Shown: positions 5,202 to 53,424 of the stretch, one piece after another
How the letters are laid out: every line of letters starts with the position of its first letter
Numbering within the stretch: the stretch's first letter is position 1
Assembly (NCBI GenBank): GCA_017536445.1
Contig: JAFXHJ010000002.1
Location: 49,467-113,466, forward strand
From: Clostridia bacterium
Lineage (GTDB): Bacteria; Bacillota; Clostridia; TANB77; CAG-465
Direction of reading: 5' to 3'
DNA length: 64,000 nucleotides
Notes under the pieces: model-generated
Databases searched by the model: none
What the model saw: only the letters and a program-made list of their open reading frames with translations
Told to the model about the DNA's origin: nothing
Position numbers and translations under genes: made by a program

Positions 5202-5423
5202 ATGGGACAAGGAAAACTAAAAGTAACTAAAGAGAGTGAAACTGGCAGAAATATAGAGTTTCAAAATACAGGCAATAATGAAAAATTAACAGCACAAGAA
5301 CTTATTTGTAGACTAGAAACTGGCAATTCTGTTTACAATCAAAGTTACTATATAAAACATCAAGGTGATGAAAAATACATAGTTTCTAAGCCAGATGGTA
5401 AGATAAAAAACAATTTGGGATAA
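5202..5423 (+). CDS. small hypothetical protein (73 aa; possibly DUF3892-like)
   Basis: RBS aggaggttgat, 73-aa ORF. Family assignment from memory only. Confidence 0.45.
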   Translation: MGQGKLKVTKESETGRNIEFQNTGNNEKLTAQELICRLETGNSVYNQSYYIKHQGDEKYIVSKPDGKIKNNLG

Positions 5424-5652: not shown

Positions 5653-6198
5653 ATGGAAATAATAGAATCTGAAATAAGACAAATTTTTGCATCTGTAGTT
5701 TGGAATCATAAAATACACGAAAAACAATGTGATATTAATAGTAAACACTATAATTTTTTAGAGTTTGTAAGATTGCTTTCATCTGTAATTACGACATCTG
5801 GTCTGTTGACTTGTATATTTATAGATGAATTCTATGTGAAACTAGTAACAACAATAGTTTCAGCAATTTCTATGTTTGTAACTGCATTTTGTAAAACATA
5901 TAATATAAAAGATACGATGCAGGAACATAAAGTTATAGCGTTGGAATTCTTACAACTAAAGAATGAAATAATAAGCATATTATCGGAGATAAAAATAAAA
6001 AGAATAGATGAAGAAAGAGCAATAGAAAAGCGAAATAAAGTATTGGACAAGTATCATACATTGTGTAAAAAAAGTCTAAATACAACTGATAAAGCTGTAA
6101 AACTTGCTAGTAAAGCGCTGAAAGAACAAAGAGACAATACATTTGACGATAAAGAAATAGATAGTTATCTGCCGATAGAGTTAAGAAAGGAGAAATAA
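5653..6198 (+). CDS. 2-TM membrane protein, SLATT-like predicted effector partner of the downstream nucleotidyltransferase
   Basis: RBS aggagg. Two predicted TM helices (LLSSVITTSGLLTCIFI; LVTTIVSAISMFVTAFC) followed by a charged helical tail. Stop TAA abuts the ATG of the next gene (translational coupling). Confidence 0.5.
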   Translation: MEIIESEIRQIFASVVWNHKIHEKQCDINSKHYNFLEFVRLLSSVITTSGLLTCIFIDEFYVKLVTTIVSAISMFVTAFCKTYNIKDTMQEHKVIALEFLQLKNEIISILSEIKIKRIDEERAIEKRNKVLDKYHTLCKKSLNTTDKAVKLASKALKEQRDNTFDDKEIDSYLPIELRKEK

Positions 6199-7476
6199 AT
6201 GTTAGCTAGAGATTTTGAAGAGTTTTGCAGTAATATTAAATTAGACAACAAAGAAGACATGGAATCTACTGTAAAAGATATAACTAAAAAATTAAATAAA
6301 CACTATTATGATTTAGATGATGCAGTTGAACATATGCACACTGTGGGCTCTGTTGGAAGAACAACTGCGATAAAAAATACTAGTGATTTAGATATATTAT
6401 TCGAATTACCACAAAGTGTATACGACAGAATAAATGACAATGAGGGGAATAAGCAATCACAATTGTTGCAAGAAGTAAAAAATGTGTTGAAGGATAGATA
6501 TCCCAACACTGACTTAAGAGGAGATGGACAAGTAGTAGTTATTAATTTTTCTAAATATACGGTAGAATTAGTCCCAGCTTTTAAGAATGATGACGATTCG
6601 TATAAATATCCAGATTCGAATGAAGGAGGAAAGTGGAGAAACACAAATCCGTTGCCAGAAATAGAAAAATGTCTAGAAATAGATGATCAGACAAGTGGAA
6701 ATTTCACGAATATATGCCATATGCTTAGGGCTTGGAAGAATAAAGCGGGATTTAAGTTTAAGGGCTTACTAATAGATACATTGACTAATAACTTTCTTAA
6801 TAATAATGAACAATACAAAAACTGTAATTATGAAGATTATCTAAATTTAATCAAAGATTTGTTTTTGTATTTGAAGAGTCAGAACAAGGAACAAGAATTT
6901 TGGCATGCTATAGGAAGTAATCAAAAAGTCTATGATGATGGAAGGTTTATTAGAAAAGCTGCTAAAACATATGAAGAAATAAAAGATTTAGAAGCGGATA
7001 CTGAAAGAATAAATAAAAAGTTAAGAAAAGTGTTTGGAAGAGAATTTCCCAAAAGAGACGAAGAGGAAACACAAAATAAATATAATTATGATAATACCGA
7101 AGAGTTTATAGAAGATCGTTATCAAATAGATATAATATTGAATGTACAATTAAAGTGTATAGTTACTCAAGATGGTTTTCGACCTACAGATTTAAGGGCG
7201 TTGAAATTTTTGAAGAAAAATAGAAAACTTGAGTTTGAGATAGAAAACAAGTCAGAACTTGTAAAAAATGGAGTGGAACATATTATATGGAAAGTAAAAA
7301 ATGAAGGCGAAATAGCGGAAAAAAGAAATCATATTAGAGGGCAATTGTTAATGACAGACCGTTATAATCGAGAAGAAAACACTAGTTTTGAAGGACCACA
7401 TTATGTAGAAGTATATGTTATAAAGAAAAATATTTGTGTTGGAAAAGGCAGAGTAGATGTAAATATTGCACCTTAA
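6199..7476 (+). CDS. SMODS/CD-NTase-like (cGAS/DncV-like) nucleotidyltransferase with uncharacterised ~130-aa C-terminal domain
   Basis: Pol-beta NTase core motif 'GSVGRTTAIKNTSDLDILFELP' (GS...x10...[DE]xD). Downstream 'VELVPAF' strand and 'W...NP...L.IDDQTSGNFTNICHMLRAWK' helix are typical of CD-NTases. Coupled to the upstream 2-TM gene. Confidence 0.6.
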   Translation: MLARDFEEFCSNIKLDNKEDMESTVKDITKKLNKHYYDLDDAVEHMHTVGSVGRTTAIKNTSDLDILFELPQSVYDRINDNEGNKQSQLLQEVKNVLKDRYPNTDLRGDGQVVVINFSKYTVELVPAFKNDDDSYKYPDSNEGGKWRNTNPLPEIEKCLEIDDQTSGNFTNICHMLRAWKNKAGFKFKGLLIDTLTNNFLNNNEQYKNCNYEDYLNLIKDLFLYLKSQNKEQEFWHAIGSNQKVYDDGRFIRKAAKTYEEIKDLEADTERINKKLRKVFGREFPKRDEEETQNKYNYDNTEEFIEDRYQIDIILNVQLKCIVTQDGFRPTDLRALKFLKKNRKLEFEIENKSELVKNGVEHIIWKVKNEGEIAEKRNHIRGQLLMTDRYNREENTSFEGPHYVEVYVIKKNICVGKGRVDVNIAP

Positions 7477-7484
7477 AGCACCCT

Positions 7485-7512
7485 CCCCACAATACACTTG
7501 TGTATTGTGGGG
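7485..7512 (+). terminator. terminator after nucleotidyltransferase gene
   Basis: Perfect 13-bp stem ccccacaatacac/gtgtattgtgggg with 2-nt loop. Confidence 0.55.
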
Positions 7513-7531
7513 ATAAGCATAGGAGAAACAA

Positions 7532-7891
7532 ATGAATAATGTTAATTTAGAAAGATATATAGAAGCACATAAAAGAGAATATAAACAAGCATTAGAAGAA
7601 ATAAAGAATGGTAAAAAGAAAACACATTGGATGTGGTATATATTTCCGCAAATAGATGGATTAGGAATAAGTAGCACATCTAAATATTATGCAATAAGAA
7701 ATAAAGAAGAAGCAAAAGCATATCTAAATAATGAATATCTATATAATCATTTAATAGAAATATGTAAAGAGTTAATGAAATTAAATACAAACAACATAAT
7801 AGAAGTACTACTTTATCCAGACAATTATAAACTATGTTCATCTATGACATTATTTTATCTAACTAACCCTAAAGAAGAAATCTTTAAGTAA
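7532..7891 (+). CDS. DUF1810 family protein
   Basis: Characteristic 'HWMWYIFPQ' motif and ~120-aa size. RBS aggagaaacaa. Confidence 0.6.
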   Translation: MNNVNLERYIEAHKREYKQALEEIKNGKKKTHWMWYIFPQIDGLGISSTSKYYAIRNKEEAKAYLNNEYLYNHLIEICKELMKLNTNNIIEVLLYPDNYKLCSSMTLFYLTNPKEEIFK

Positions 7892-8155
7892 GTATTAGAT
7901 AAATACTATAATGGTAAATTAGATGAAAAGACTATAGAGATATTAAATAAACAACAAAACAAATAACACATTATTTGTGTATAAAATCCATGCTAATAGT
8001 GTTGGCAAAATAAAATGTATGAGTAAAGAGAGCAGAGATGCTCGCTTTTTATAACATCATAACAAAATACGACAAAAGTCTTCAAAAATTTGGTAATTCA
8101 ATTGAGAAATTATGTGTTTTATGATATAAAATACATAAATAAACGGAGGTTACAA

Positions 8156-9715
8156 ATGAATAATAAAAATATGAAAGAAAGAGAAGAACTACACAAGGCA
8201 ATATGGGCTATTGCAGATGATTTAAGAGGTTCTGTAGATGGATGGGATTTCAAACAATATATACTAGGTATAATGTTTTATAGATATATATCAGAAAATA
8301 TAACAAATTACATAAATGAAGGCGAAAGAAAAGCAGGAGATAAAGATTTTGATTATGCAAAATTATCAGATGCTGAAGCTGAAACAGTAAGAGAAGATTT
8401 GGTAAAGGTAAAAGGCTTCTTTATATTACCTTCAGAACTATTTTGCAATGTATGTAAAAGAGCAAAAAGTGATGAAAACTTAAATGAAACACTAGAAAAC
8501 ATATTTAGCAATATAGAAAATTCTGCAAAAGGAGCAGAGAGCGAAGATGACTTTGCAGGATTATTTGCGGATTTAGATGTAAACAGCAATAAATTAGGTG
8601 CATCTGTACCTAAAAGAAATGCTAAATTAGTGAAGATACTAGAAGGTATAGCAAATATAAAACTGGGTAATTATCAAGACAACTCAATAGATGCATTTGG
8701 AGATGCTTACGAATTCTTAATGGGTATGTATGCATCAAATGCAGGAAAATCTGGTGGAGAATTCTATACACCACAAGAAGTAAGTGAACTATTAACAAAA
8801 CTTGCTGTACTTGGAAAAACACAAGTAAACAAAGTATACGACCCAGCTTGTGGATCTGGTTCATTGCTATTAAAAGCAGCTAAAATACTAGGTAAAGAAA
8901 ATGTAAGAAATGGCTTCTTTGGCCAAGAAATAAACCTAACAACATATAACCTATGTAGAATAAATATGTTCTTACATGATATAGACTATGATAAATTTGA
9001 TATAGCTTGTGAAGACACATTGGTATCACCACAACATTGGGATGATGAACCGTTTGAAGTAATAGTTTCAAATCCACCATACTCAATAAAATGGGCAGGA
9101 GACGATAACACAGTATTAATAAACGACCCTAGATATTCACCAGCAGGAGTACTAGCGCCAAAATCTAAAGCAGACTTTGCATTCATAATGCATTCATTAG
9201 CTTGGCTTGCAACAAATGGAACAGCGTCAATAGTATGTTTCCCGGGAATATTATATAGAGGTGGCGCAGAACAAAAAATTAGAAAATATTTAATAGACAA
9301 TAATTTTGTAGATGCAATTATACAATTACCAGATAATTTATTCTACGGAACATCAATAGCAACTTGTATTATGGTTCTAAAGAAGAACAAAAAAGATAAT
9401 AGCACATTATTCATAGATGCAACTAATGAATGTGTTAAAGTAACAAACAATAATAAACTTACGGACGAAAATATAGATAATATAGTAAATATATTTGCAA
9501 AAAGAGAAGATATAGAATATGTTGCAAAGCTTGTATCAAACAAAGAAATAGAAGAAAATGAATATAACTTATCTGTATCAACATATGTAGAAAAAGAAGA
9601 TACAAGAGAAAAAATAGACATAGTTAAGCTTAATAAAGAAATAGAAGAAATAGTTGCAAGAGAACAAGTACTTCGTGATGAAATAAATAAAATAATAGCA
9701 GAAATAGAGGTGTAA
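8156..9715 (+). CDS. hsdM: type I restriction-modification system, M subunit (N6-adenine DNA methyltransferase)
   Basis: N-terminal HsdM_N region, SAM motif DPACGSGSLLL, catalytic NPPYS motif. Start at ATG 8156 with RBS acggagg; the ORF-track 8090 start lacks an RBS. Confidence 0.92.
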   Translation: MNNKNMKEREELHKAIWAIADDLRGSVDGWDFKQYILGIMFYRYISENITNYINEGERKAGDKDFDYAKLSDAEAETVREDLVKVKGFFILPSELFCNVCKRAKSDENLNETLENIFSNIENSAKGAESEDDFAGLFADLDVNSNKLGASVPKRNAKLVKILEGIANIKLGNYQDNSIDAFGDAYEFLMGMYASNAGKSGGEFYTPQEVSELLTKLAVLGKTQVNKVYDPACGSGSLLLKAAKILGKENVRNGFFGQEINLTTYNLCRINMFLHDIDYDKFDIACEDTLVSPQHWDDEPFEVIVSNPPYSIKWAGDDNTVLINDPRYSPAGVLAPKSKADFAFIMHSLAWLATNGTASIVCFPGILYRGGAEQKIRKYLIDNNFVDAIIQLPDNLFYGTSIATCIMVLKKNKKDNSTLFIDATNECVKVTNNNKLTDENIDNIVNIFAKREDIEYVAKLVSNKEIEENEYNLSVSTYVEKEDTREKIDIVKLNKEIEEIVAREQVLRDEINKIIAEIEV

Positions 9716-9716
9716 T

Positions 9717-10400
9717 ATGAAGGAAAAAGGTGGATATATATACATATTAACAAATCCTTCTTTCAAAGAATATGTAAAGATAGGATATGCAGATGATGTA
9801 GAACAAAGACTAAAACAACTAAATAGAAGTGAATGTATTCCTTTTGCTTTCAGAATATATGCTGTTTATGAAGTAGATTCTAGATTATCAGATATAAAAA
9901 TACATTCAATTATAGATAAATTAAACCCAAATCTAAGATCAATAGATACATTTGAAGGAAAAGAAAGAAAAAGAGAATTCTATGCTATGACACCAGAAGA
10001 TGCATATAGCATTTTAGAGGCGATAGCCGAAATAAATGGTAGAAAAGACAAACTAAAATTAGTTGCACCAACTAAATACGAAAAACACGAAGAAGAAATG
10101 GCAGATGATGTAAAGCAAGAGAATATGGAAAGACTAATACCATTTAACTTTAATATGGTAAATATTAAACCTGGAGAAGAATTAGAATTTGTAAATAATG
10201 CAAGCCCTAATAATGGTGTGACTTGTATAGTTGTAAACGATAAACAGGTTGAGTATAATGGAGAGAAATGGTCGTTATCTGCACTAGCAACTAAACTTTC
10301 TGATGCAAAATGGGGAGTTGCTGGACCACGTTACTTCAAACACAAAGGTGAATGGCTAAACAGTATAAGAAAAAGACTGGAGGGCACAGATAGTGAGTAA
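9717..10400 (+). CDS. GIY-YIG (T5orf172-type) nuclease domain protein with C-terminal DUF4357-like domain, inserted between hsdM and hsdS
   Basis: N-terminal 'GGYIYILTN...YVKIGYA' GIY-YIG signature. 2-nt gap after hsdM. 8-nt overlap with hsdS. Confidence 0.65.
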   Translation: MKEKGGYIYILTNPSFKEYVKIGYADDVEQRLKQLNRSECIPFAFRIYAVYEVDSRLSDIKIHSIIDKLNPNLRSIDTFEGKERKREFYAMTPEDAYSILEAIAEINGRKDKLKLVAPTKYEKHEEEMADDVKQENMERLIPFNFNMVNIKPGEELEFVNNASPNNGVTCIVVNDKQVEYNGEKWSLSALATKLSDAKWGVAGPRYFKHKGEWLNSIRKRLEGTDSE

Positions 10401-11673
10401 ATTAGAACAGTTAATTCAAGAATTATGCCCTGATGGTGTGGAATATAAAAAGTTCAATGAAGTGGCAGAATACATTAGAGGAGTGTCATACAACAAATCT
10501 AAGGAAATTAATAATGGGAAAGAAGGTCACAAACTTTTAAGAGCTAATAATATAACATTGTTATCTAATGAATTAAATTATGATGAAGTTAAAATTATTG
10601 ATTTTTCTGTCAACGTAAAACCAAATCAAATGCTATTAAAAAATGATATTTTAATATGTGCAGGAAGTGGAAGCAAAGAGCATATTGGAAAAGTTGCGTT
10701 TATAGAGAAGAATATAAATTACACATTTGGAGGATTTATGGGGGTAATAAGAATAAAACACAATATAATGAATCCAAGATATATGTTTCACATAATGACT
10801 AGTCCTATATTTAAGGCTCATCTTAGTAAGGTATCGAATAGTAGTACCATAAATAATATAAACAATGATACTTGGAAAGAATTCTATTTTCCTGTACCTC
10901 CGTTGGAGGTACAATGTGAAATTGTCCGTATTTTGGACCATTTCACATTACTTACAGCAGAGCTTACAGCAGAGCTTACAGCAGAGCTTACAGCAAGAAA
11001 GAATCAATATGATTATTATATGGATGCGTGTTTTAAGAGTATTAAATCGACGGTAAAGGTAAAGATGTCAGATGTGTTAATTTCATTAAAAACAGGTTTG
11101 AATCCTAGAAAGTTTTTTCAGTTAAACACAGATGATGCACAAGGATACTATGTTACAGTTAGAGAACTAGGAGATAGACAAGTAAAATATTGGCAATCAA
11201 AAGATAAAGTAAATCAAGTTGGCTTAAATAGAATAAATGAACGCTCTAATTTAGAAATTAATGATGTTTTGTTTAGTGGTACTGGAACAATCGGTAGGGT
11301 ATCATTAATTGAAGAGAAACCAAATAATTGGAACGTAAAGGAAGGGGTATACATACTAAAACCAGATACTAAAGTAATAAATCCTGTGTTTTTAATGTAT
11401 TTGATGAAATCAAATTATATGAGAAATATATATTCTAATTATATAGTTGGTTCACCAGTAGCAAGTGTGCCGATGAAAGATTTAAAAGAACTAGAATTTG
11501 ATTTGCCATCAATTGAAGAACAAGAAAAAATAGTAGCGATATTAGATAGATTTGATAAATTATGTAATGACATTTCAGAAGGCTTACCTGCAGAAATAGA
11601 AGCAAGACAAAAACAATATGAATATTATAGAGAGAAGTTATTGTCTTTTAAAGAGGTAAAAAAATATGAATGA
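10393..11673 (+). CDS. hsdS: type I restriction-modification system, S (specificity) subunit with central (TAEL)3 repeat
   Basis: Two TRD-like halves separated by a central conserved region containing LTAELTAELTAELTA. C-terminal conserved helix (DRFDKLCNDISEGLPAEIEARQKQYEYYREKLL). GTG start overlapping the upstream stop. Confidence 0.88.
   Translation: MSKLEQLIQELCPDGVEYKKFNEVAEYIRGVSYNKSKEINNGKEGHKLLRANNITLLSNELNYDEVKIIDFSVNVKPNQMLLKNDILICAGSGSKEHIGKVAFIEKNINYTFGGFMGVIRIKHNIMNPRYMFHIMTSPIFKAHLSKVSNSSTINNINNDTWKEFYFPVPPLEVQCEIVRILDHFTLLTAELTAELTAELTARKNQYDYYMDACFKSIKSTVKVKMSDVLISLKTGLNPRKFFQLNTDDAQGYYVTVRELGDRQVKYWQSKDKVNQVGLNRINERSNLEINDVLFSGTGTIGRVSLIEEKPNNWNVKEGVYILKPDTKVINPVFLMYLMKSNYMRNIYSNYIVGSPVASVPMKDLKELEFDLPSIEEQEKIVAILDRFDKLCNDISEGLPAEIEARQKQYEYYREKLLSFKEVKKYE
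10951..10995 (+). repeat. 12-bp tandem repeat cttacagcagag x3.7 encoding (TAEL)n in hsdS central conserved region
   Basis: Direct reading: three perfect 12-mers plus one partial unit, in frame. Confidence 0.9.
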
Positions 11674-12733
11674 TGTGTATGATACAATAGAAACAGTTGC
11701 TGAAGGAATTAAAACAAATTTAATAAACAAAGAAGATAAAAAATCAATAACATTGTTATATGCTTTTAGTTCTACAGGGAAGACAAGAATATCTAGAATA
11801 TTATCTGATGAAGAAAATAATGATAACATTTGTTTCAATTCTTTCATTACAGACTTATTTGTTTGGGATAATGAAAATTTTGTAATTAATATTCCAAAAG
11901 ATTGCTGGATTGTTAAATTTATAAATGAACAAGGAATTGAAAATCAGATAAAGGATAATTTTAGAGAACTTGTAACTTCAAAAGTAGAGCCAAGGTTTGA
12001 ATTAAATGAAGGCAAAATCAAGTTTGATATACCAACTGGTGATAATAACGTAGAGACAGGAATAAAAATTTCAAAAGGAGAAGAAAGTTTATTTATTTGG
12101 AGTGTATTTTACACAATTTTAACCATTGTAATAGAAGAACTGAATATGAGTAAAGATAACCGAAGTACAGACGTTTTTAATAATTTACAATACGTTATTA
12201 TAGATGATCCGATTTCTTCAATAGATGATTCGAAAATTGTAACTATGGCACTGCAATTAATAGAAGCTATAAACAGTAGTAAAAGCAATTTGAAATTCTT
12301 TATTACAACACATCTGGCGTTATTTTATAATGTAATATACTCTAATTATAGAAAATCAAAAGATTTTAATTCTATTGTTTTAACAAAAAAAGATAATCAA
12401 TTCTATTTAACTAATCAATCAAAAGATACACCGTTTGGTTATCATTTAACTCTTAAACAAGAAATTGAACGAGCAATAGAAAACGATGATATAAGAAAAT
12501 ATCATTATAATTTGTTTAGAAATTTAATCGAAAAGACAAGTAATTTCTTGGGGTATAAAGAGTGGACAAACTGTATTGCTGGAAATCGAAAAACAGAATT
12601 TATAAAGAAAATAAATTTATATAGCCATAGCAGATTAATAGATTGGGAATATAAACAATTACCAGAGGAAGATAAGGAACTATTTAAAGAAGTATATAAT
12701 AGCTTTAAAAAAGAGTATAAATGGGAGGAATAA
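11666..12733 (+). CDS. P-loop ATPase-like protein at the PrrC position of the type I R-M operon (possible anticodon-nuclease/abortive-infection-like)
   Basis: Walker A-like 'AFSSTGKT', Walker B-like 'VIIDDPISSIDD'. Sits between hsdS and hsdR, overlapping hsdS by 8 nt. Anticodon-nuclease identity is not demonstrated. Confidence 0.4.
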   Translation: MNDVYDTIETVAEGIKTNLINKEDKKSITLLYAFSSTGKTRISRILSDEENNDNICFNSFITDLFVWDNENFVINIPKDCWIVKFINEQGIENQIKDNFRELVTSKVEPRFELNEGKIKFDIPTGDNNVETGIKISKGEESLFIWSVFYTILTIVIEELNMSKDNRSTDVFNNLQYVIIDDPISSIDDSKIVTMALQLIEAINSSKSNLKFFITTHLALFYNVIYSNYRKSKDFNSIVLTKKDNQFYLTNQSKDTPFGYHLTLKQEIERAIENDDIRKYHYNLFRNLIEKTSNFLGYKEWTNCIAGNRKTEFIKKINLYSHSRLIDWEYKQLPEEDKELFKEVYNSFKKEYKWEE

Positions 12734-12741
12734 TATTTAAT

Positions 12742-15700
12742 ATGAATAAATATAATGTAGTAATGGAAATGAGTAATTCTACAGTTGCAGCAGAATATGA
12801 ACCCTTAAAGAAGCGCTCTGAGGCATATCAATCTGAAGCCGCTTTAGAGGAAGAATTCATAAGAATGCTTACTGAACAGGGATATGAACGTTTGATGATT
12901 CATAATTCAGAAGCGTTAGTAGATAATTTGCGTAAACAATTAGAATTACTTAATGATTACAAATTTACAGATTCAGAATGGGCTAGATTTTTTAATAATA
13001 ACATTGCTAATAACAATGATGGCATTGTAGAGAAAACTAGAAAAATACAAGAAGATTACATTCAAGTTCTAAAAAGAGATGATGGGACAAGCAAAAATAT
13101 CTATCTATTAGATAAGAAGAATATTCATAACAATAGACTACAAGTTATTAATCAATATGTAGAAAATGAAGGTAATTATAATAATAGATATGATGTAACT
13201 GTTCTTGTTAATGGCCTACCTTTAGTACATATAGAATTAAAAAGAAGAGGAGTTGCTTTAAAGGAAGCGTTTAATCAAATAAACAGATACCAAAGGGATA
13301 GCTTTTGGGCTGGAAGTGGACTATATGAATATGTACAAATATTTGTAATATCTAATGGAACTACTACAAAGTATTATTCTAATACTACCAGAGAAAGTCA
13401 CATTAAAGAAAAAGCAGCTGGCAGAAACAAAAGTAAAAAGACAAGTAATAGTTTTGAGTTTACTTCATATTGGGCTGATGCAAATAACAAAGTAATACCA
13501 GATTTAGTAGACTTTACAAGAACATTCTTTTCCAAACATACATTGTTAAATATATTAACTAAGTATTGTGTGTTTACTTCAGAAGATTTGTTACTTGTAA
13601 TGAGACCTTATCAAATAGTTGCAACAGAAAGAATATTAAATAGAATAGAAGTTGCAAAGAATTACAAAAAAATGGGAACTATAGAAGCTGGTGGATACAT
13701 TTGGCATACAACTGGTTCTGGAAAAACTCTAACATCTTTCAAAACAGCACAGCTTGCAACAAATTTAGAATATATAGACAAAGTATTATTTGTTGTAGAT
13801 AGAAAAGACTTAGACTATCAAACAATGAAAGAATACGACAAGTTTGAAAAAGGCGCTGCTAATGGAAATAGAAGTACTAAAGTATTACAAAGACAATTAG
13901 AAGATAGCACATCTAGAATAATAGTTACAACTATTCAAAAATTAAGTGAATTTGTAAAGAGAAACAAAACTCATCCAGTATATCAAAAACATATGGTATT
14001 AATATTTGATGAATGTCATCGTTCACAATTTGGTGATATGCATAAGATGATAGTAAAAAGCTTTAAGAAATACCATTTGTTTGGGTTTACAGGAACACCT
14101 ATATTTGCTAAAAATGCATTTAACAAATCTAATCCGGACTTCTGTACGACAGAGCAAGCTTTTGGAGATAAACTACATACATATACAATAGTTGATGCTA
14201 TAAATGATGGAAATGTACTTCCATTTAGAATAGACTATGTAAATACAGTAAAATCTAAAGAAGGAATGAAGGATAAGCAAGTAACTGCAATTAATACAGA
14301 AGAAGCATTAGCTTCTCATGAAAGAGTTAGCAAAGTAGTAGAATATATAATTGAACATTTTGACCAAAAGACAAAAAGAAATGCTTTTTATGACTTAAAA
14401 GGACAAAGATTAAATGGATTTAACTCAATATTTGCAGTTAGTTCAATACCAATGGCTAAAAAGTATTATGCAGAGTTTAAGAAACAACTAGAGGAAGCTA
14501 ATAAAGATTTAACCATTGCAACGATATATTCTTTTGCAGCAAACGAAGAAGACAATTTAGATGGAATATTAGACGATGAAGGTTTTGAAACAGAGTTATT
14601 AGATCAAAGTTCTAGAGAATTCCTAGATTTTGCGATTGATGAATACAATAAGAAGTTCAAAACAAATTTCTCATCAGAAGGAAATGGATTCCAAGATTAT
14701 TATAAAGATTTATCTGATAGAGTAAAGAAAAGAGAAATAGATTTACTTATAGTTGTAAATATGTTCTTAACAGGATTTGATGCAACAACATTAAATACAT
14801 TGTGGGTAGATAAGAACTTAAAACAACACGGATTAATACAAGCATTTTCAAGAACTAATAGAATATTAAATTCAGTTAAATCTTATGGAAATATAGTTTG
14901 TTTTAGAGATTTACAAGAACAAACTAATGATGCAATAGCACTATTTGGAGATAAAGATGCAAGTGGTATTGTATTATTAAAATCTTATGAAGATTACTAC
15001 TATGGATACGAGGATGAAAAAGGTAAGAAACAAAAAGGATATGAAGAAAGAATAGCTGAACTTATTCAAAAATATCCTTTGGGTGAACCAATAATAGGTG
15101 AGCAAAACGAAAAAGACTTTATTGTATCTATGGGTAATATTTTAAGATTAAGAAATATATTATCTTCGTTTGACAAGTTTGAAGGAAATGAAATACTTTC
15201 ACCAAGAGATTTACAAGACTATATAGGAACATATACAGACCTATATGAAAAGTATAAACCAGACCCAACAGATAGCGAAAGCATTAAAGATGATATTGTA
15301 TTTGAAATGGAACTTGTAAAACAAGTAGAAGTAAACATAGATTATATTTTAATGCTTGTTGCTAAATATCATAAATCAAATTGTAAAGATAAAGAAATAC
15401 TTGGTTCTATCGATAAAGCTATTAAGTCAAGCTTAGCGTTACGTTCTAAGAAAGAGTTAATAGAATTGTTTATTGAAAGAATAAATACTGTAGCGGATGT
15501 GTTTAAGGATTGGACTAAATTTGTAAAAGAACAAAAAGAAATAGACTTGAAAGCATTAGTTGAAGAAGAAAACTTAAACGAAGATGAAACTAGAAGATTC
15601 TTAAATAATTCATTCAGAGATGGACAAGTTAAAACAACTGGAACAGATATAGAAAAGATATTACCACCAATGAGATGGTTTGGCGGTGGGAATAGAGCAG

Positions 15701-15864
15701 CAAGAAAACAAACTATAATACAAAAAGTGTCTAAGTTCTTTGAAAAATATTTTGGAATAGTAAATGTCGAAGAAGAAAAAGAAGATTTGTATGAAGTGTG
15801 CGAAGATAGCGAACCATATGAGGTGCTTATGGTTGCGGAAGATACGGAAAACGAGTATAAATAA
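12742..15864 (+). CDS. hsdR: type I restriction enzyme R subunit (DEAD/DEAH helicase-nuclease)
   Basis: Helicase motifs HTTGSGKT (Walker A) and FDECHRSQ (DEAH box), ~1040 aa. Start at ATG 12742 with RBS gggagga. Confidence 0.92.
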   Translation: MNKYNVVMEMSNSTVAAEYEPLKKRSEAYQSEAALEEEFIRMLTEQGYERLMIHNSEALVDNLRKQLELLNDYKFTDSEWARFFNNNIANNNDGIVEKTRKIQEDYIQVLKRDDGTSKNIYLLDKKNIHNNRLQVINQYVENEGNYNNRYDVTVLVNGLPLVHIELKRRGVALKEAFNQINRYQRDSFWAGSGLYEYVQIFVISNGTTTKYYSNTTRESHIKEKAAGRNKSKKTSNSFEFTSYWADANNKVIPDLVDFTRTFFSKHTLLNILTKYCVFTSEDLLLVMRPYQIVATERILNRIEVAKNYKKMGTIEAGGYIWHTTGSGKTLTSFKTAQLATNLEYIDKVLFVVDRKDLDYQTMKEYDKFEKGAANGNRSTKVLQRQLEDSTSRIIVTTIQKLSEFVKRNKTHPVYQKHMVLIFDECHRSQFGDMHKMIVKSFKKYHLFGFTGTPIFAKNAFNKSNPDFCTTEQAFGDKLHTYTIVDAINDGNVLPFRIDYVNTVKSKEGMKDKQVTAINTEEALASHERVSKVVEYIIEHFDQKTKRNAFYDLKGQRLNGFNSIFAVSSIPMAKKYYAEFKKQLEEANKDLTIATIYSFAANEEDNLDGILDDEGFETELLDQSSREFLDFAIDEYNKKFKTNFSSEGNGFQDYYKDLSDRVKKREIDLLIVVNMFLTGFDATTLNTLWVDKNLKQHGLIQAFSRTNRILNSVKSYGNIVCFRDLQEQTNDAIALFGDKDASGIVLLKSYEDYYYGYEDEKGKKQKGYEERIAELIQKYPLGEPIIGEQNEKDFIVSMGNILRLRNILSSFDKFEGNEILSPRDLQDYIGTYTDLYEKYKPDPTDSESIKDDIVFEMELVKQVEVNIDYILMLVAKYHKSNCKDKEILGSIDKAIKSSLALRSKKELIELFIERINTVADVFKDWTKFVKEQKEIDLKALVEEENLNEDETRRFLNNSFRDGQVKTTGTDIEKILPPMRWFGGGNRAARKQTIIQKVSKFFEKYFGIVNVEEEKEDLYEVCEDSEPYEVLMVAEDTENEYK

Positions 15865-15875
15865 CAAATGAAAAA

Positions 15876-15914
15876 ACAGAATAACATGCAATATAGCAAT
15901 GTTATTTTGTTTTT
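15876..15914 (+). terminator. terminator after hsdR
   Basis: acagaataacat/atgttattttgt stem (1 mismatch) followed by TTTT. Confidence 0.5.
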
Positions 15915-39777: not shown

Positions 39778-41631
39778 TTGCAAATGTCGATAAATATAGG
39801 TATATTTTATGCGGGTGATGGTATGCTTGCATGGTATTTGGTGATTTCTTTTATATTGTTTTTAGCTATAGATTATAAGGTGATATATAACTTTTTAGAT
39901 TCGAAAATATTATATACGTCCAGTGGCAGTAAAATCAATTATGATAAAAAGGAAGTTAAAAGTATTTTTTATATAATAGAAAATCTTAATATTGTAGACC
40001 TAATAATATTAGTAGTTTTATCTTTAATATCGTTTCTTTTGTTATTTGGAATTTCATCATATATATTTAGTATAACTCCGTTATATTTAAATTTAGGATA
40101 TAAAAGTATAAATATCCATATAGCGTTTGCAGGGGTTATTGAAGAGCTAAAGTTAATATATAATTTATCACAATTTTTATTCTGTATAATATTTATATTC
40201 CGCTTTAAGAATCAAATAATAAATTTTATTAAGAAACAATTAATAAGTATATTAAATAAAGATACAGATGAACCTTCAAGACAAATTTTAGAGGATAAAT
40301 CGTATAATGTTGGAAGAGATGAAAATGATGAGTGTATAAGTATATTGGAAAAGTCACTGTATCAAAATGTATTAATAACCGATAGTATTGGTAGTGGGAA
40401 AACAAGCGGAGCAATATCTAGACTGACTTATTCGCTAATAAAAAGTGGTAAAAGTGGACTAATACTAGATGTAAAAGGGAATTTTGCACATACAATAGAA
40501 GAAATGTGTAAAAGGTGCGGAAGATATGCGGATTTGAAAATAATATCTAAAAATTCGGATACGTATTTCAACATATTAAATCCGTCGAGTTCTTGTTTAG
40601 AACTTGCGAATAGGGTAAAACAAATATTAGAATTGTTATCAGTTAAAAATAACAGTGATTCATATTGGCTAGATAAAGTGCAAAATTTTCTTACAAATAT
40701 ATTTATAATAATGAAATATTTAAATAAGTTTAATATATTAGAATTGCACAAATTAATTACAGAAGAAAACTACTTGAAACAAACAATAGGTTGTATAAAA
40801 GAAAAAGTTATTAAAAATCCACCAAATGATAAATTGGCCTTTGAACTTAGCAATGCTGTTAATTTCATATCTAAAGAATTTGACGGCTTAGATACAAGAG
40901 TGAAGTCTATTATTAAATCCGAGATAACAAGATTTACCACACCTTTAATTACGGAATATGATATATATAATCAGTTTTGTAATAAAGGAAATAAAGAAGA
41001 AGTTTATTTCAATGACAAAAACATAATTGTTTTATCGATTCCAACAGGAGAAAATAGAACCATTTCAAAAATAATGGCGATCATACTAAAATTAGAATTT
41101 CAAAAATATGTTTTATCAAATCTTTCTAATCCGATACCAATTTTTTTCATAGCAGATGAATTCCAAGAGTTCGCAAATGTAGCAGATAGTGAATTTTTAT
41201 CACTGTCAAGAGAAGCTAAATGTATAAATATAATTAGTACGCAAAGTTATTCATCTTTAAAGTCCACGTTAAAAGATGAACAAGGGACAAATGTAATCAT
41301 ACAAAATTTAGTCAATAAAATATGGTTTAGGACGGACGATAACTATACAGTATCAGAAATAATAAAACAACTAGGAAAGACAAATGTTATAAGAGAAAAC
41401 AAAAGTATTAGCGAAGCGGGAACAGAGAGTAAAAAATATATTTTTAAAGAGGGGTTTAGAAACACCAAAAGTAGTATATCTAAGACGTTAAATTATGTAG
41501 AAACAAAAGAAAATGAATATGATGAAAACTTTTTTACCAGAGAGCTTAAAACCTTTGAAGCTCTTGCACTATTGGTTGGCAAAGAAGGAATAGAAGAACC
41601 TAAAAAAATAATATTTGAGAGGTGGAAATAA
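39778..41631 (+). CDS. VirD4/TraG/TraD-like type IV secretion coupling-protein ATPase (membrane-anchored P-loop NTPase)
   Basis: N-terminal TM segments. Walker A 'DSIGSGKTSGA'. Walker B-like 'IFFIADEFQEF'. ~617 aa. Exact start uncertain. Confidence 0.5.
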   Translation: MQMSINIGIFYAGDGMLAWYLVISFILFLAIDYKVIYNFLDSKILYTSSGSKINYDKKEVKSIFYIIENLNIVDLIILVVLSLISFLLLFGISSYIFSITPLYLNLGYKSINIHIAFAGVIEELKLIYNLSQFLFCIIFIFRFKNQIINFIKKQLISILNKDTDEPSRQILEDKSYNVGRDENDECISILEKSLYQNVLITDSIGSGKTSGAISRLTYSLIKSGKSGLILDVKGNFAHTIEEMCKRCGRYADLKIISKNSDTYFNILNPSSSCLELANRVKQILELLSVKNNSDSYWLDKVQNFLTNIFIIMKYLNKFNILELHKLITEENYLKQTIGCIKEKVIKNPPNDKLAFELSNAVNFISKEFDGLDTRVKSIIKSEITRFTTPLITEYDIYNQFCNKGNKEEVYFNDKNIIVLSIPTGENRTISKIMAIILKLEFQKYVLSNLSNPIPIFFIADEFQEFANVADSEFLSLSREAKCINIISTQSYSSLKSTLKDEQGTNVIIQNLVNKIWFRTDDNYTVSEIIKQLGKTNVIRENKSISEAGTESKKYIFKEGFRNTKSSISKTLNYVETKENEYDENFFTRELKTFEALALLVGKEGIEEPKKIIFERWK

Positions 41632-51492: not shown

Positions 51493-53424
51493 ATGACAGA
51501 AAAAGAAAAATTTTATATAACAACAGCGATAGCATACACATCTAAAAAACCTCATATTGGAAATACATATGAGATAATTTTAACAGACGCAATAGCGAGA
51601 TTTAAAAAGATGCAAGGTAAAGATGTATTCATGTTAACTGGAACAGATGAACACGGTCAAAAAATACAAGAATTAGCTGAAAAAGCAGGAATAGCTCCAA
51701 AAGCATATGTAGATAATGTTGCTGGAGAAATAAAAAGAATATGGGATTTAATGAATGTAGAATACGATCATTTTGTTCGTACAACAGATGATTACCATGA
51801 AGAAACTGTACAAAAAATATTCAAAAAGCTATATGATCAAGGAGATATTTATCTTGGAGAATATGAAGGAATGTATTGTACACCATGTGAATCATTCTTT
51901 ACAGAATCTCAATTAGTAGATGGAAAATGTCCAGACTGCGGAAGAGAAGTTAAACCTGCAAAAGAAGAAGCATATTTCTTAAAATGCAGTAAATACCAAG
52001 ATAGATTAATTGAATATATTGAATCTCATCCGGGATTTATTGAACCAGAATCTAGAAAGAAAGAAATAATGAACAATTTCTTAAAAGCAGGTCTTCAAGA
52101 CCTGTGCGTTTCTAGAACGTCATTTACTTGGGGAATACCAGTAAGCTTTAACCCTAAGCATGTTACATATGTATGGATAGATGCTTTAACAAACTATATA
52201 ACAGCTTTAGGTTACAAATTAGATTCAAAATCTGAACTATACAATAAAAATTGGCCAGCAGATGTACATGTAATTGGTAAAGATATATTAAGATTCCATT
52301 CAATATATTGGCCAATAATACTAATGGCATTAGGTGAGCCATTGCCTAGGAAGATATATGCTCATGGCTGGATGTTATTTGGCGAAGATAAGATGAGTAA
52401 ATCTAAAGGAAATGTAATCTATGCAGATGAACTTGCAGAAGAATTTGGTGTAGATGCAGTTAGATATTATTCTTTATCTGAAATGCCTTATGCTCAAGAT
52501 GGAAGCATCACATACGAAGCCGTAATATCTAGATATAATTCAGATCTTGCAAACACATTAGGAAATCTAGTAAACAGAACGGTTGCGATGGTTAATAAAT
52601 ACTTTGAAGGAACAGTATATTTACCAGGTGAAGAAACTGATGTAGATAAAGACTTAAAAGCATTTGTTAAAAATACAGTAGATACATACATTGCTAAGAT
52701 GGATGAATATAGAGTGGCAGAGGCTATTGAAACAGTAATGGATTTAGCTAGAAGAAGCAATAAATATATAGATGAAACAACTCCATGGACATTAGCTAAA
52801 GAAGACACAGAAAGATTAAAAACAGTATTATTTAATCTTTTAGAGGCTATTAAAGTTATTGCAACTTTAATATTCCCAGTAATGCCTGAAACAGCTAAGA
52901 AAATAGCTGAGCAAATAAATGTAGAAGAGGTAACATTAGATTCTGTTAAAGAATTTGGTGTAAATGCTGCTGAAAGAAAAGTAGGTACTGCAACTCCATT
53001 ATTTGCTAGAATAGATGAAAAAGAAAAGTTAGAAGAATTAACTAAGAAAATGGAGGCTAAAAAGGAAGCGGCTAAAGCAGAGGAACCAAAAGATGTTAAA
53101 GAAGAAATAACTTTTGATGAATTTGGTAAAACTGAACTTAGAGTGGCTAAAATACTTACAGCAGAAAGAATAGAAGGAGCCAACAAGCTATATAAAATAA
53201 CTGTTGATCTTGGATATGAACAAAGAACAGTAGTATCTGGACTTGTACCATATTACAAAGAAGATGAGTTAATAGGAAAGAAAGTAGTGCTTGTAGCTAA
53301 TCTAAAACCAGCTAAATTAAGAGGAATTGAATCTAGAGGAATGATACTTGCAGCAGGTGAAGGAGATAATATTAAGCTTGTAACAGTAGACGGAGATATG
53401 GAACTAGGGGCATTAGTTTGTTAA
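51493..53424 (+). CDS. metG: methionine--tRNA ligase with C-terminal tRNA-binding (EMAP-like) domain
   Basis: HIGH motif 'PHIGN', KMSKS present, zinc knuckle CTPCE...CPDCG, C-terminal 'ELRVAKIL...GLVPYY'. Start at ATG 51493 with RBS aaggagg. Confidence 0.95.
   Translation: MTEKEKFYITTAIAYTSKKPHIGNTYEIILTDAIARFKKMQGKDVFMLTGTDEHGQKIQELAEKAGIAPKAYVDNVAGEIKRIWDLMNVEYDHFVRTTDDYHEETVQKIFKKLYDQGDIYLGEYEGMYCTPCESFFTESQLVDGKCPDCGREVKPAKEEAYFLKCSKYQDRLIEYIESHPGFIEPESRKKEIMNNFLKAGLQDLCVSRTSFTWGIPVSFNPKHVTYVWIDALTNYITALGYKLDSKSELYNKNWPADVHVIGKDILRFHSIYWPIILMALGEPLPRKIYAHGWMLFGEDKMSKSKGNVIYADELAEEFGVDAVRYYSLSEMPYAQDGSITYEAVISRYNSDLANTLGNLVNRTVAMVNKYFEGTVYLPGEETDVDKDLKAFVKNTVDTYIAKMDEYRVAEAIETVMDLARRSNKYIDETTPWTLAKEDTERLKTVLFNLLEAIKVIATLIFPVMPETAKKIAEQINVEEVTLDSVKEFGVNAAERKVGTATPLFARIDEKEKLEELTKKMEAKKEAAKAEEPKDVKEEITFDEFGKTELRVAKILTAERIEGANKLYKITVDLGYEQRTVVSGLVPYYKEDELIGKKVVLVANLKPAKLRGIESRGMILAAGEGDNIKLVTVDGDMELGALVC

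Follow-up and report, generated by a model that had tools for sequence, protein, structure and literature searches.

An in-frame TAEL repeat of one to three units in the HsdS of a type IC restriction-modification system from uncultured Clostridia: a probable strain-variable specificity switch

The window analysed here (64,000 nucleotides, i.e., the whole stretch of DNA under study) comes from a Clostridia species of low GC content that is uncultured and has been recovered in metagenome assemblies. It carries a restriction-modification operon of five genes, hsdM-T5orf172-hsdS-prrC-hsdR, with overlapping start and stop codons. The hsdS gene of this operon contains a perfect 12-bp tandem repeat. 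The features are as follows.

8090-9715, plus strand: hsdM, N6-adenine methyltransferase subunit (Pfam N6_Mtase, E 4e-116; HsdM_N)
9717-10400, plus strand: T5orf172/GIY-YIG-like gene between hsdM and hsdS, candidate defence gene PDC-S57 of PADLOC (Pfam, E 1.7e-13; PADLOC, E 1e-97)
10393-11673, plus strand: hsdS, type IC specificity subunit of 426 aa (Pfam Methylase_S; PDB 7bst_A)
10903-11037, plus strand: central conserved helix of HsdS (residues 171-215), which holds the array and spaces the two target-recognition domains (TRDs) (AlphaFold2; EcoR124 alignment)
10951-10995, plus strand: perfect tandem array, CTTACAGCAGAG repeated 3.75 times and encoding L(TAEL)3TA, the variable element (Tandem Repeats Finder score 90, 100% identity)
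11512-11643, plus strand: distal C-terminal conserved helices of HsdS (residues 374-417), the partner of the central helix (AlphaFold2; anchor lengths)
11666-12733, plus strand: prrC homologue of the anticodon-nuclease family, between hsdS and hsdR (PADLOC PrrC, E 3.1e-95)
12721-15864, plus strand: hsdR with an EcoR124-type C-terminal domain (Pfam EcoR124_C, E 3.2e-62; HSDR_N, SWI2_SNF2, ResIII, T1R_D3-like)

Gene callers place the start of hsdM at 8156 instead of 8090 (as in the called genes of L002, a metagenomic contig with the same locus) and that of hsdR at 12742 instead of 12721. The hsdS gene starts with GTG and overlaps the stop codon of the upstream gene. As HsdR carries the EcoR124_C domain together with the nuclease and SF2 motor domains usual for this subunit, the system was assigned to family IC, which was originally defined by complementation between subunits, cross-reacting antibodies or DNA hybridization. 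The PrrC match covers positions 20-347 of the 372 positions of the PADLOC profile, which is near full length; in Pfam, the C-terminal part of the protein matches AAA_13 below the cut-off. The prrC start and stop codons overlap hsdS and hsdR, respectively, and with a prrC homologue between these two genes the locus appears to be of the prr type. In this respect it resembles EcoprrI of E. coli (prrA-hsdM, prrB-hsdS, prrC, prrD-hsdR), likewise a member of type IC in which prrC separates hsdS from hsdR and HsdS has three TAEL units, as in the window. However, the window has the additional T5orf172/PDC-S57 gene between hsdM and hsdS. In prr-type loci, PrrC is an anticodon nuclease for tRNA-Lys that stays latent while the restriction-modification complex masks it, and a phage anti-restriction peptide activates it; the homologue in the window may act in this way. 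Copy-number variants of EcoprrI are not mentioned in the type IC literature covered here.

Upstream of the operon, PADLOC finds a CBASS pair (2TM/SLATT effector and cyclase), and further defence-related genes lie downstream. Elsewhere in the window there are housekeeping genes, e.g., for pyruvate phosphate dikinase, pyruvate formate-lyase and metG; the ATG of the latter, at 51493, is well inside an ORF whose GTG start lies upstream. The MetRS encoded by metG shares 100% identity with a protein from a Clostridia MAG.

Read directly, positions 10951-10995 consist of three copies of CTTACAGCAGAG followed by CTTACAGCA. Tandem Repeats Finder describes the same stretch as a period of 12 with 3.8 copies, 100% matches and no indels. 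Its score of 90 is the highest in the 64-kb window (the runner-up has 62), and for the base composition of the window (31% GC) about 1.5e-13 equally long perfect period-12 runs are expected by chance. The array begins on base 1 of codon 187 in the hsdS ORF (10393-11673); it is therefore read in frame, as residues 187-201 in the context ...ILDHFTL-L TAEL TAEL TAEL TA-RKNQYDYY.... The initial annotation had described 3.7 in-frame copies encoding LTAELTAELTAELTA, and direct reading, the repeat finder and the translation bear out both the copy number and the encoded sequence. Tandem tetrapeptide repeats (TAEL, LEAT, SEAL, TSEL) in the central region of HsdS are a hallmark of type IC systems (PMC10030836), and L(TAEL)3TA is such a repeat.

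Two stretches of HsdS match Pfam Methylase_S (E 1e-39), corresponding to the two TRDs. In a phmmer search against PDB, residues 167-421 align to residues 151-398 of EcoR124 HsdS (7bst_A, E 6.9e-28), with the near-identical motifs EIVRILD.F...RK.QY.YY and GLP.EIE.RQKQYEYYR. The conserved central and C-terminal regions are thus homologous to those of EcoR124 HsdS, and they flank two variable TRDs. At the array, LTAELTAELTAELTARKNQY of the window protein is aligned with LTAEL----TAELNMRKKQY of 7bst_A, i.e., the window protein is exactly one TAEL unit longer. In the AlphaFold2 model (mean pLDDT 85.9), residues 171-215 form one continuous helix with the TAEL units (residues 187-198) in its middle. 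The two Methylase_S domains, the alignment of the TAEL units with 7bst_A and the modelled helix agree with the initial annotation, which had located the array between the TRDs, in the central conserved helix. The distal helix of the window protein measures 17 aa between its anchors, which equals the length of the three-unit central helix, and the DNA of the central and distal conserved regions is recognizably paralogous (78% identity).

Retargeting of type I enzymes through helix repeats was already known in 1989. In the first conserved helix, EcoR124I (recognizing GAA N6 RTCG) has two copies of a 12-bp sequence and EcoR124II (GAA N7 RTCG) has three, as the initial annotation had stated for EcoR124I and EcoR124/3 (two versus three TAEL units, N6 versus N7), and the change was attributed to unequal crossing-over; EcoDXXI and EcoPrrI have three units (PMC3874165). 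An extra TAEL separates the TRDs by another 0.34 nm and turns them through 36 degrees (Loenen et al. 2014, PMC3874165). The system of the window shares with EcoR124I/II (R124 and R124/3, encoded on an E. coli plasmid) the TAEL peptide from a 12-bp tandem repeat at the same site of the central helix, the anchor-to-anchor lengths of 13 aa for two and 17 aa for three units, and an HsdR with the EcoR124_C domain. It differs from EcoR124 in its TRDs (TRD1 is closer to the N-TRD of EcoKI, and TRD2 aligns only weakly to EcoR124) and in its location on a chromosome, in a defence island of a MAG from uncultured Clostridia. Furthermore, its operon has extra embedded genes, and three natural states (one, two and three units, see below) stand against two in EcoR124I/II.

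The array is a TAEL array of type IC in the central helix, and, on the grounds given here and below, we consider it likely that gain or loss of a 12-bp unit retargets the enzyme by a 1-bp step of the spacer per unit. The array would form about three turns of the long central helix, which, paired with the C-terminal helix, holds the TRDs at a fixed distance and rotation. Units could be gained or lost by slipped-strand mispairing or by unequal crossing-over between identical units. Each 12-bp unit would leave the frame intact and add or remove four helical residues, and the non-specific spacer of the bipartite target would change by one bp at each step. Judging from the helix lengths of EcoR124I/II, two units would correspond to N6 and the three units of the window to N7; one unit would probably correspond to N5. 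By this analogy the relative spacer steps are well founded, and the absolute spacer values are to be taken as estimates; the absolute spacer length also depends on the junctions between TRDs and helices (Cooper et al. 2017, PMC5399793). The anatomy of the array, its place in the helix, the alleles described below and the concerted evolution of the units are observed, whereas the route and rate of the change in unit number, the actual motifs and any activity of the one-unit form are inferred. As HsdS directs both methylation and restriction, such a switch would redefine self and non-self and change which phages and plasmids are restricted.

Public gut metagenomes contain alleles of this gene whose sole difference lies in how many 12-bp units they carry. 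The best homologue of the window HsdS among 5.8 billion proteins (P0001, 418 aa) has one TAEL unit instead of three and is otherwise identical. Variants of the window HsdS with zero to seven units were constructed and each was looked up by its exact sequence. The one-unit form is on record as P0001 and the two-unit form as P0121, on four contigs and again otherwise identical, and the three-unit form is present, besides the window, on three contigs of more than 50 kb each; the forms with zero and with four to seven units gave no record in this look-up. A scan of JGI metagenomes for the exact window allele with one to five units gave no match, and among the matches listed from the species-representative genomes (GTDB) there is no close relative of the window hsdS, the best of them being 49% identical.

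The DNA of these contigs is nearly the same as that of the window. The contig with the one-unit allele (L001, 3,187 bp) and one of those with two units (L006, 3,199 bp) match the window at every base, except for a gap at 10951 of 24 bp and 12 bp, respectively. The other two-unit contigs have 3 SNPs in 10.5 kb (L005), 2 SNPs plus scaffold N-gaps (L003) and 14 SNPs, of which ten are clustered, in 10.1 kb (L004); the three-unit contig L002 has 2 SNPs in 21 kb. Within hsdS, there is no SNP in any contig compared. Scaffold N-gaps and an untidy patch beside the N-run of L003 aside, the array is the sole indel between the window and L001 (24 bp shorter) or L003-L006 (12 bp shorter). In the 10.5 kb common to the longer contigs three SNPs segregate, a density at which a 45-bp stretch would be expected to undergo about 0.013 events, whereas at least one (two versus three units) was observed, and probably two if the one-unit allele is included. 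Moreover, the two-unit form is found on both alleles of SNP 9640 and the three-unit form on two haplotypes, told apart by positions 8710 and 1187, so that each of these unit numbers occurs on at least two SNP backgrounds. Four contigs, with two as well as three units, come from samples of one study (label XIEF21-1_SAMN158300xx), which may be the ruminant gut catalogue of Xie et al. 2021.

Between strains or between samples, the unit number has thus changed rapidly relative to SNPs. Like other phase-variable loci, this one has a simple sequence repeat inside a gene with a tract length that varies among close strains. An invariant copy number across strains, which the initial annotation had named as the outcome that would speak against its proposal, is the opposite of what was found, as alleles with one, two and three units encode what is otherwise the same protein on near-identical DNA. 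Taken together with the EcoR124 analogy, the alleles support a strain-variable specificity switch. The locus may also be phase-variable in the strict sense, i.e., change frequently and reversibly within a clone.

Some of these contigs possibly go back to one and the same sample, or to sister samples, assembled more than once. Indeed, the ends of L001 and L006 coincide exactly (window positions 9883 and 13093), and L005 corresponds to the middle contig of the scaffold L003, between its N-gaps at 5370-5379 and 15872-15881; the independent observations are therefore fewer than the contigs. At the shared ends 9883 and 13093 no repeats were found. The one-unit allele is present on a single 3.2-kb contig (L001), and if L001 and L006 share reads, the discrepancy between one and two units must reflect heterogeneity within the sample or else an artefact. 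At its 3' end, L004 diverges from the window; this was also considered as a rearrangement, but the end is GC-rich and unrelated to the window, and L004 was treated as a chimeric scaffold.

That the length differences were produced by the assemblers is highly improbable. In such a case a de Bruijn graph would have been collapsed or mis-joined over 12-bp-periodic k-mers shared with other type IC hsdS genes. Such sharing between genomes is real, with CTTACAGCAGAG being the commonest unit across phyla, and L004 has a GC-rich tail that appears chimeric. All Logan contigs (presumably assembled with k=31) break inside the array. These breaks were considered as a sign of three or more units or of mixed lengths, and this was rejected, as further type IC hsdS genes of these metagenomes have the k-mers of the array as well: with CTTACAGCAGAG present in many such genes, the assembly graph branches there whatever the copy number. 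For the same reason the downstream Logan contigs start exactly where 'RKN' departs from the common 'RKK'. However, typical reads exceed the array (21-45 bp) in length, and the prefix 'k141_' of L001 and L005 points to an assembly with a final k of 141, in which the array and both flanks fit into one k-mer, making a collapse unlikely. Furthermore, the four contigs with two units belong to two naming schemes and two SNP haplotypes, and three contigs besides the window agree on three units. Similar variants are also found in unrelated lineages on many contigs; for instance, P0292 (3 contigs) is identical to P0290 (38 contigs) or P0291 (11 contigs) plus one unit, with 0 mismatches.

The lengths seen at this locus recur across the family. 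The helix was measured between the anchors (I/V)V.ILD.F and (R/K)..QY.(Y/F)Y, both of which were found in 115 of 122 proteins (121 fetched homologues and the window HsdS). The distance was 9 aa in 2 of these proteins, 13 aa in 77 and 17 aa in 36, some of the 17-aa values being distal helices. In the 80 loci that were listed for species-representative genomes and span many phyla, the length of the central helix was 9 aa in 3 cases, 13 aa in 31, 17 aa in 42 and 25 aa in 1, and the distal helix had 17 aa in all but one. A census of JGI metagenomes, made with the exact DNA unit CTTACAGCAGAG and at least two units, revealed, among the matches listed, at least 63 genes with a 13-aa helix and at least 50 with a 17-aa helix; 113 of the 115 anchored genes listed had two or three units and none had exactly four. 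Long arrays are present in L187, L108 and L198 (at least five units, at a contig edge). Constructs with four units reportedly become promiscuous, although we do not rely on this here. The helix length is thus quantized at 9, 13 or 17 residues, and two and three units dominate.

The scarcity of the other lengths bears on what the one-unit allele does. The variation may be real and yet comprise forms, i.e., the one-unit helix and the rare long arrays, that are inactive or relaxed, so that a part of it would be loss or attenuation of function instead of retargeting. This is a genuine possibility, though we doubt it. One-unit helices are indeed rare (3 of the 77 central helices in the species-representative loci listed and 2 of the 115 anchored proteins), the prevalence of two and three units in the JGI census points in the same direction, and, as the partner helix is fixed at 17 aa, one unit leaves a mismatch of eight residues. 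In addition, one gonococcal strain with an intact hsdS has no methylation (PMC6789123). On the other hand, helices with one unit are found again in further, unrelated genes that are intact (L012, L043, L084 and P0054), EcoR124I works despite a mismatch of four residues (PMC3874165), and the one-unit allele described here has an open frame of full length, with an intact prrC behind it.

The DNA of the units suggests that they are turned over in many type IC systems. All units are identical in 45 of the 65 genes with repeated units, and most of the remaining genes differ just at the last base of the last unit. Within a gene, 186 of 236 unit pairs (79%) are identical, with a mean of 0.22 nucleotide differences, compared to 231 of 867 pairs (27%) and 1.37 differences between genes with the same peptide unit. 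In a permutation test on the ELTA-phase genes, 26 of 41 were internally uniform, versus a mean of 2.8 and a maximum of 10 after shuffling (0 of 10,000 shuffles reached the observed value). Even the genes with rare unit variants (L023, L041 and L079) are internally uniform. Units that are alike within genes and different between them imply concerted evolution and, with it, units that have been duplicated and deleted time and again in many lineages. Together with the strong confinement of the arrays to two or three units, this suggests that type IC systems of many phyla are still turning over their units. Besides the cluster of the window, unit-number variants occur in three of five clusters of at least 90% identity with repeat helices and in none of three such clusters with degenerate, non-repetitive helices. 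One of the three with variants is that of P0292, a second clean case next to the locus of the window. In clusters 3 and 8, both with repeat helices, the unit number is invariant. The turnover is therefore real, though not rapid everywhere.

The number of units could also have been changed by recombination with central regions of foreign type IC hsdS genes, i.e., by gene conversion after horizontal transfer. Identical unit DNA in distant taxa would fit this, and the forms found in cluster 5 (TAEL-TAEL, TAEL-KAEL and TAEL-TAEL-KAEL) resemble products of inter-allelic crossover. We nevertheless regard this explanation as quite improbable here. With no SNPs in hsdS or the surrounding 3.2 kb, a conversion tract would need to be confined to the array, and the homogeneity of the rare-variant genes L023, L041 and L079 needs an intragenic process. 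Nor does tblastn find a second hsdS or half-hsdS in the 64-kb window that could serve as a local donor; the same search excludes a shufflon-type recombinational switch within the window.

Gain and loss of units within the gene itself thus remain our preferred reading. N5, N6 and N7 subpopulations might arise by true high-frequency phase variation within one host-associated population, possibly as a phasevarion, i.e., an epigenetic regulation beyond defence. The variation of the copy number on near-clonal backgrounds is in line with this, and so would be the common boundaries of L001 and L006, with one and two units, as they would reflect within-sample heterogeneity if these contigs come from the same reads or sister samples. 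In-frame repeats next to TAEL were also flagged as a plausible, unanalysed class in the survey of Atack et al. 2020 (PMC7383803). We still think that such frequent switching is unlikely. The 12-bp unit is present in just 3.75 copies, and slippage is normally far rarer in arrays as short as this than in long homopolymer or tetranucleotide tracts. The indirect evidence is mixed, with a change that is fast relative to SNPs at this locus and no change in many sister clusters; as the unit number often does not vary in other clusters of at least 90% identity, the rate of switching is probably modest and not that of a contingency locus. Finally, the position of the gene in a defence island, by prrC and CBASS, speaks for defence rather than regulation.

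The nearest natural parallel among strains is NgoAV of gonococci, in which the number of tetrapeptides (LEAT/EATL) in the central region of HsdS also varies. Zero to three LEAT repeats are found among strains, and PacBio sequencing showed GACN6TGC versus GACN7TGC, so that one extra repeat lengthens the spacer of the methylated motif by 1 bp (Sanchez-Buso et al. 2019, PMC6789123). In contrast to the window, NgoAV has another repeat peptide and also changes its specificity through a poly-G frameshift that truncates HsdS; no such poly-G tract is present in the window hsdS. Furthermore, the NgoAV data come from cultured isolates with methylomes, whereas the system of the window is known from metagenome assemblies. 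The survey of type I genes by Atack et al. 2020 (PMC7383803) dealt with frameshifting repeats and deferred those whose length is divisible by three to later work. The systems described there also have a simple sequence repeat of strain-variable length inside hsdS, but its frameshifts make HsdS ON, OFF, truncated or extended, whereas the array of the window is always in frame and is expected to retarget the enzyme.

In type IC HsdS, an array of this kind is an ordinary feature and a defining one, and its mechanism is textbook knowledge, so the locus itself is no discovery. The natural series of alleles with one, two and three units and the family-wide concerted evolution of the units are useful, incremental additions. 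As the alleles lie on almost identical DNA, they provide natural material for mapping helix length to spacer length, including the little-studied one-unit state. They also belong to the in-frame class of repeats that the published surveys of phase-variable type I systems, having taken only frameshifting repeats, left unanalysed. Retargeting of a restriction-modification system alters the entry of phages and plasmids for each strain and thus bears on strain-level dynamics in gut communities. It is also conceivable, though in our opinion unlikely, that the array is a three-state contingency switch (approximately N5/N6/N7) inside single gut populations and that the perfection of the repeats across the family is kept by selection for switchability; the contigs with one and two units and identical ends may be such co-existing subpopulations. 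If this were true, in-frame helix repeats would represent a widespread class of specificity-switching restriction-modification systems that has been missed by surveys based on frameshifts.

The region around the restriction-modification (R-M) operon is a chromosomal defence island, and a CBASS-like gene pair together with a DUF1810 gene (window 5653-7891) lies directly upstream of the operon:

5653-6198, 2TM/SLATT effector of the CBASS-like pair
6199-7476, oligonucleotide cyclase of the CBASS-like pair
8090-15864, R-M operon with the prr-locus architecture known from E. coli

As in the E. coli prr locus, a PrrC homologue is encoded between hsdS and hsdR, and its assignment is clear (E = 3e-95, PADLOC, window operon). 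In contrast to that locus, the window operon possesses an additional T5orf172/PDC-S57 gene, placed between hsdM and hsdS. The start and stop codons of all genes in this operon overlap. On L002, a metagenome contig matching the window and carrying three TAEL units, genes for Fic, PycTM-like and MqsA/SocA_Panacea proteins are found close by. Elsewhere in the window, a 617-aa ORF (39778-41631) has a weak match to TraD, the coupling protein of conjugation (NCBIfam TIGR03743, 54 bits, far under the cut-off), and may be a piece of an integrated mobile element.

The N-terminal target-recognition domain (TRD) of EcoKI HsdS reads AAC. TRD1 of the window HsdS (window 10429-10940, residues 13-183) aligns with this domain (2y7c_A, 61 bits for the stretch); the similarity is too low for a transfer of specificity but provides a lead for the half-site.

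Two of the matching metagenome contigs, L001 (one TAEL unit) and L006 (two units), come from different ENA analyses and have exactly equal start and end coordinates (window 9883-13093). No repeats were found in the window at either of these shared ends. The equal ends could reflect a strain mixture in which only the hsdS-prrC cassette is common, or one read set that was assembled twice. In another contig with two units (L004), the part past window position 11908, inside prrC (L004 10135-11193), is GC-rich and unrelated to the 31%-GC window; this tail probably stems from chimeric scaffolding and not from a true rearrangement. The contigs from Logan (L090-L092, L099, L100 and L102), a source assembled with k=31, always break within the TAEL array. 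The k-mers of this array are common to unrelated type IC hsdS genes of one metagenome, and therefore Logan-type assemblies will fragment type IC hsdS systematically.

Very long central arrays are rare among the matches listed. A perfect array of 109 nt (L108, 395-503) encodes eight TAEL units between the fixed motifs bounding the central helix; the others are an array of 95 nt (L187), one at the edge of its contig with at least five units (L198), and one made of five AELQ-type units, from a Eubacteriales MAG of GTDB (L008, 3496-3570). Among the same matches (~190 helices examined), no gene had exactly four units.

Repeats are present in other HsdS forms as well. The HsdS homologues P0028-P0120 are "extended" proteins of 620-665 aa with three TRDs. 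In the clusters of P0094, P0029, P0098 and P0101, near-identical members carry 3-7 copies of an SRAEQ pentapeptide past the second conserved helix, and forms of ~412-453 aa alternate with forms of ~629-665 aa. These SRAEQ-bearing proteins look like the extended-HsdS class with frameshifting repeats (Atack 2020, PMC7383803). The related P0021 cluster (P0242-P0255) has a (TH)n dipeptide repeat directly past the central helix; many of its members are 207-215 aa long, with lengths spaced 2 aa apart, and this pattern points to another kind of truncation switch driven by a repeat.
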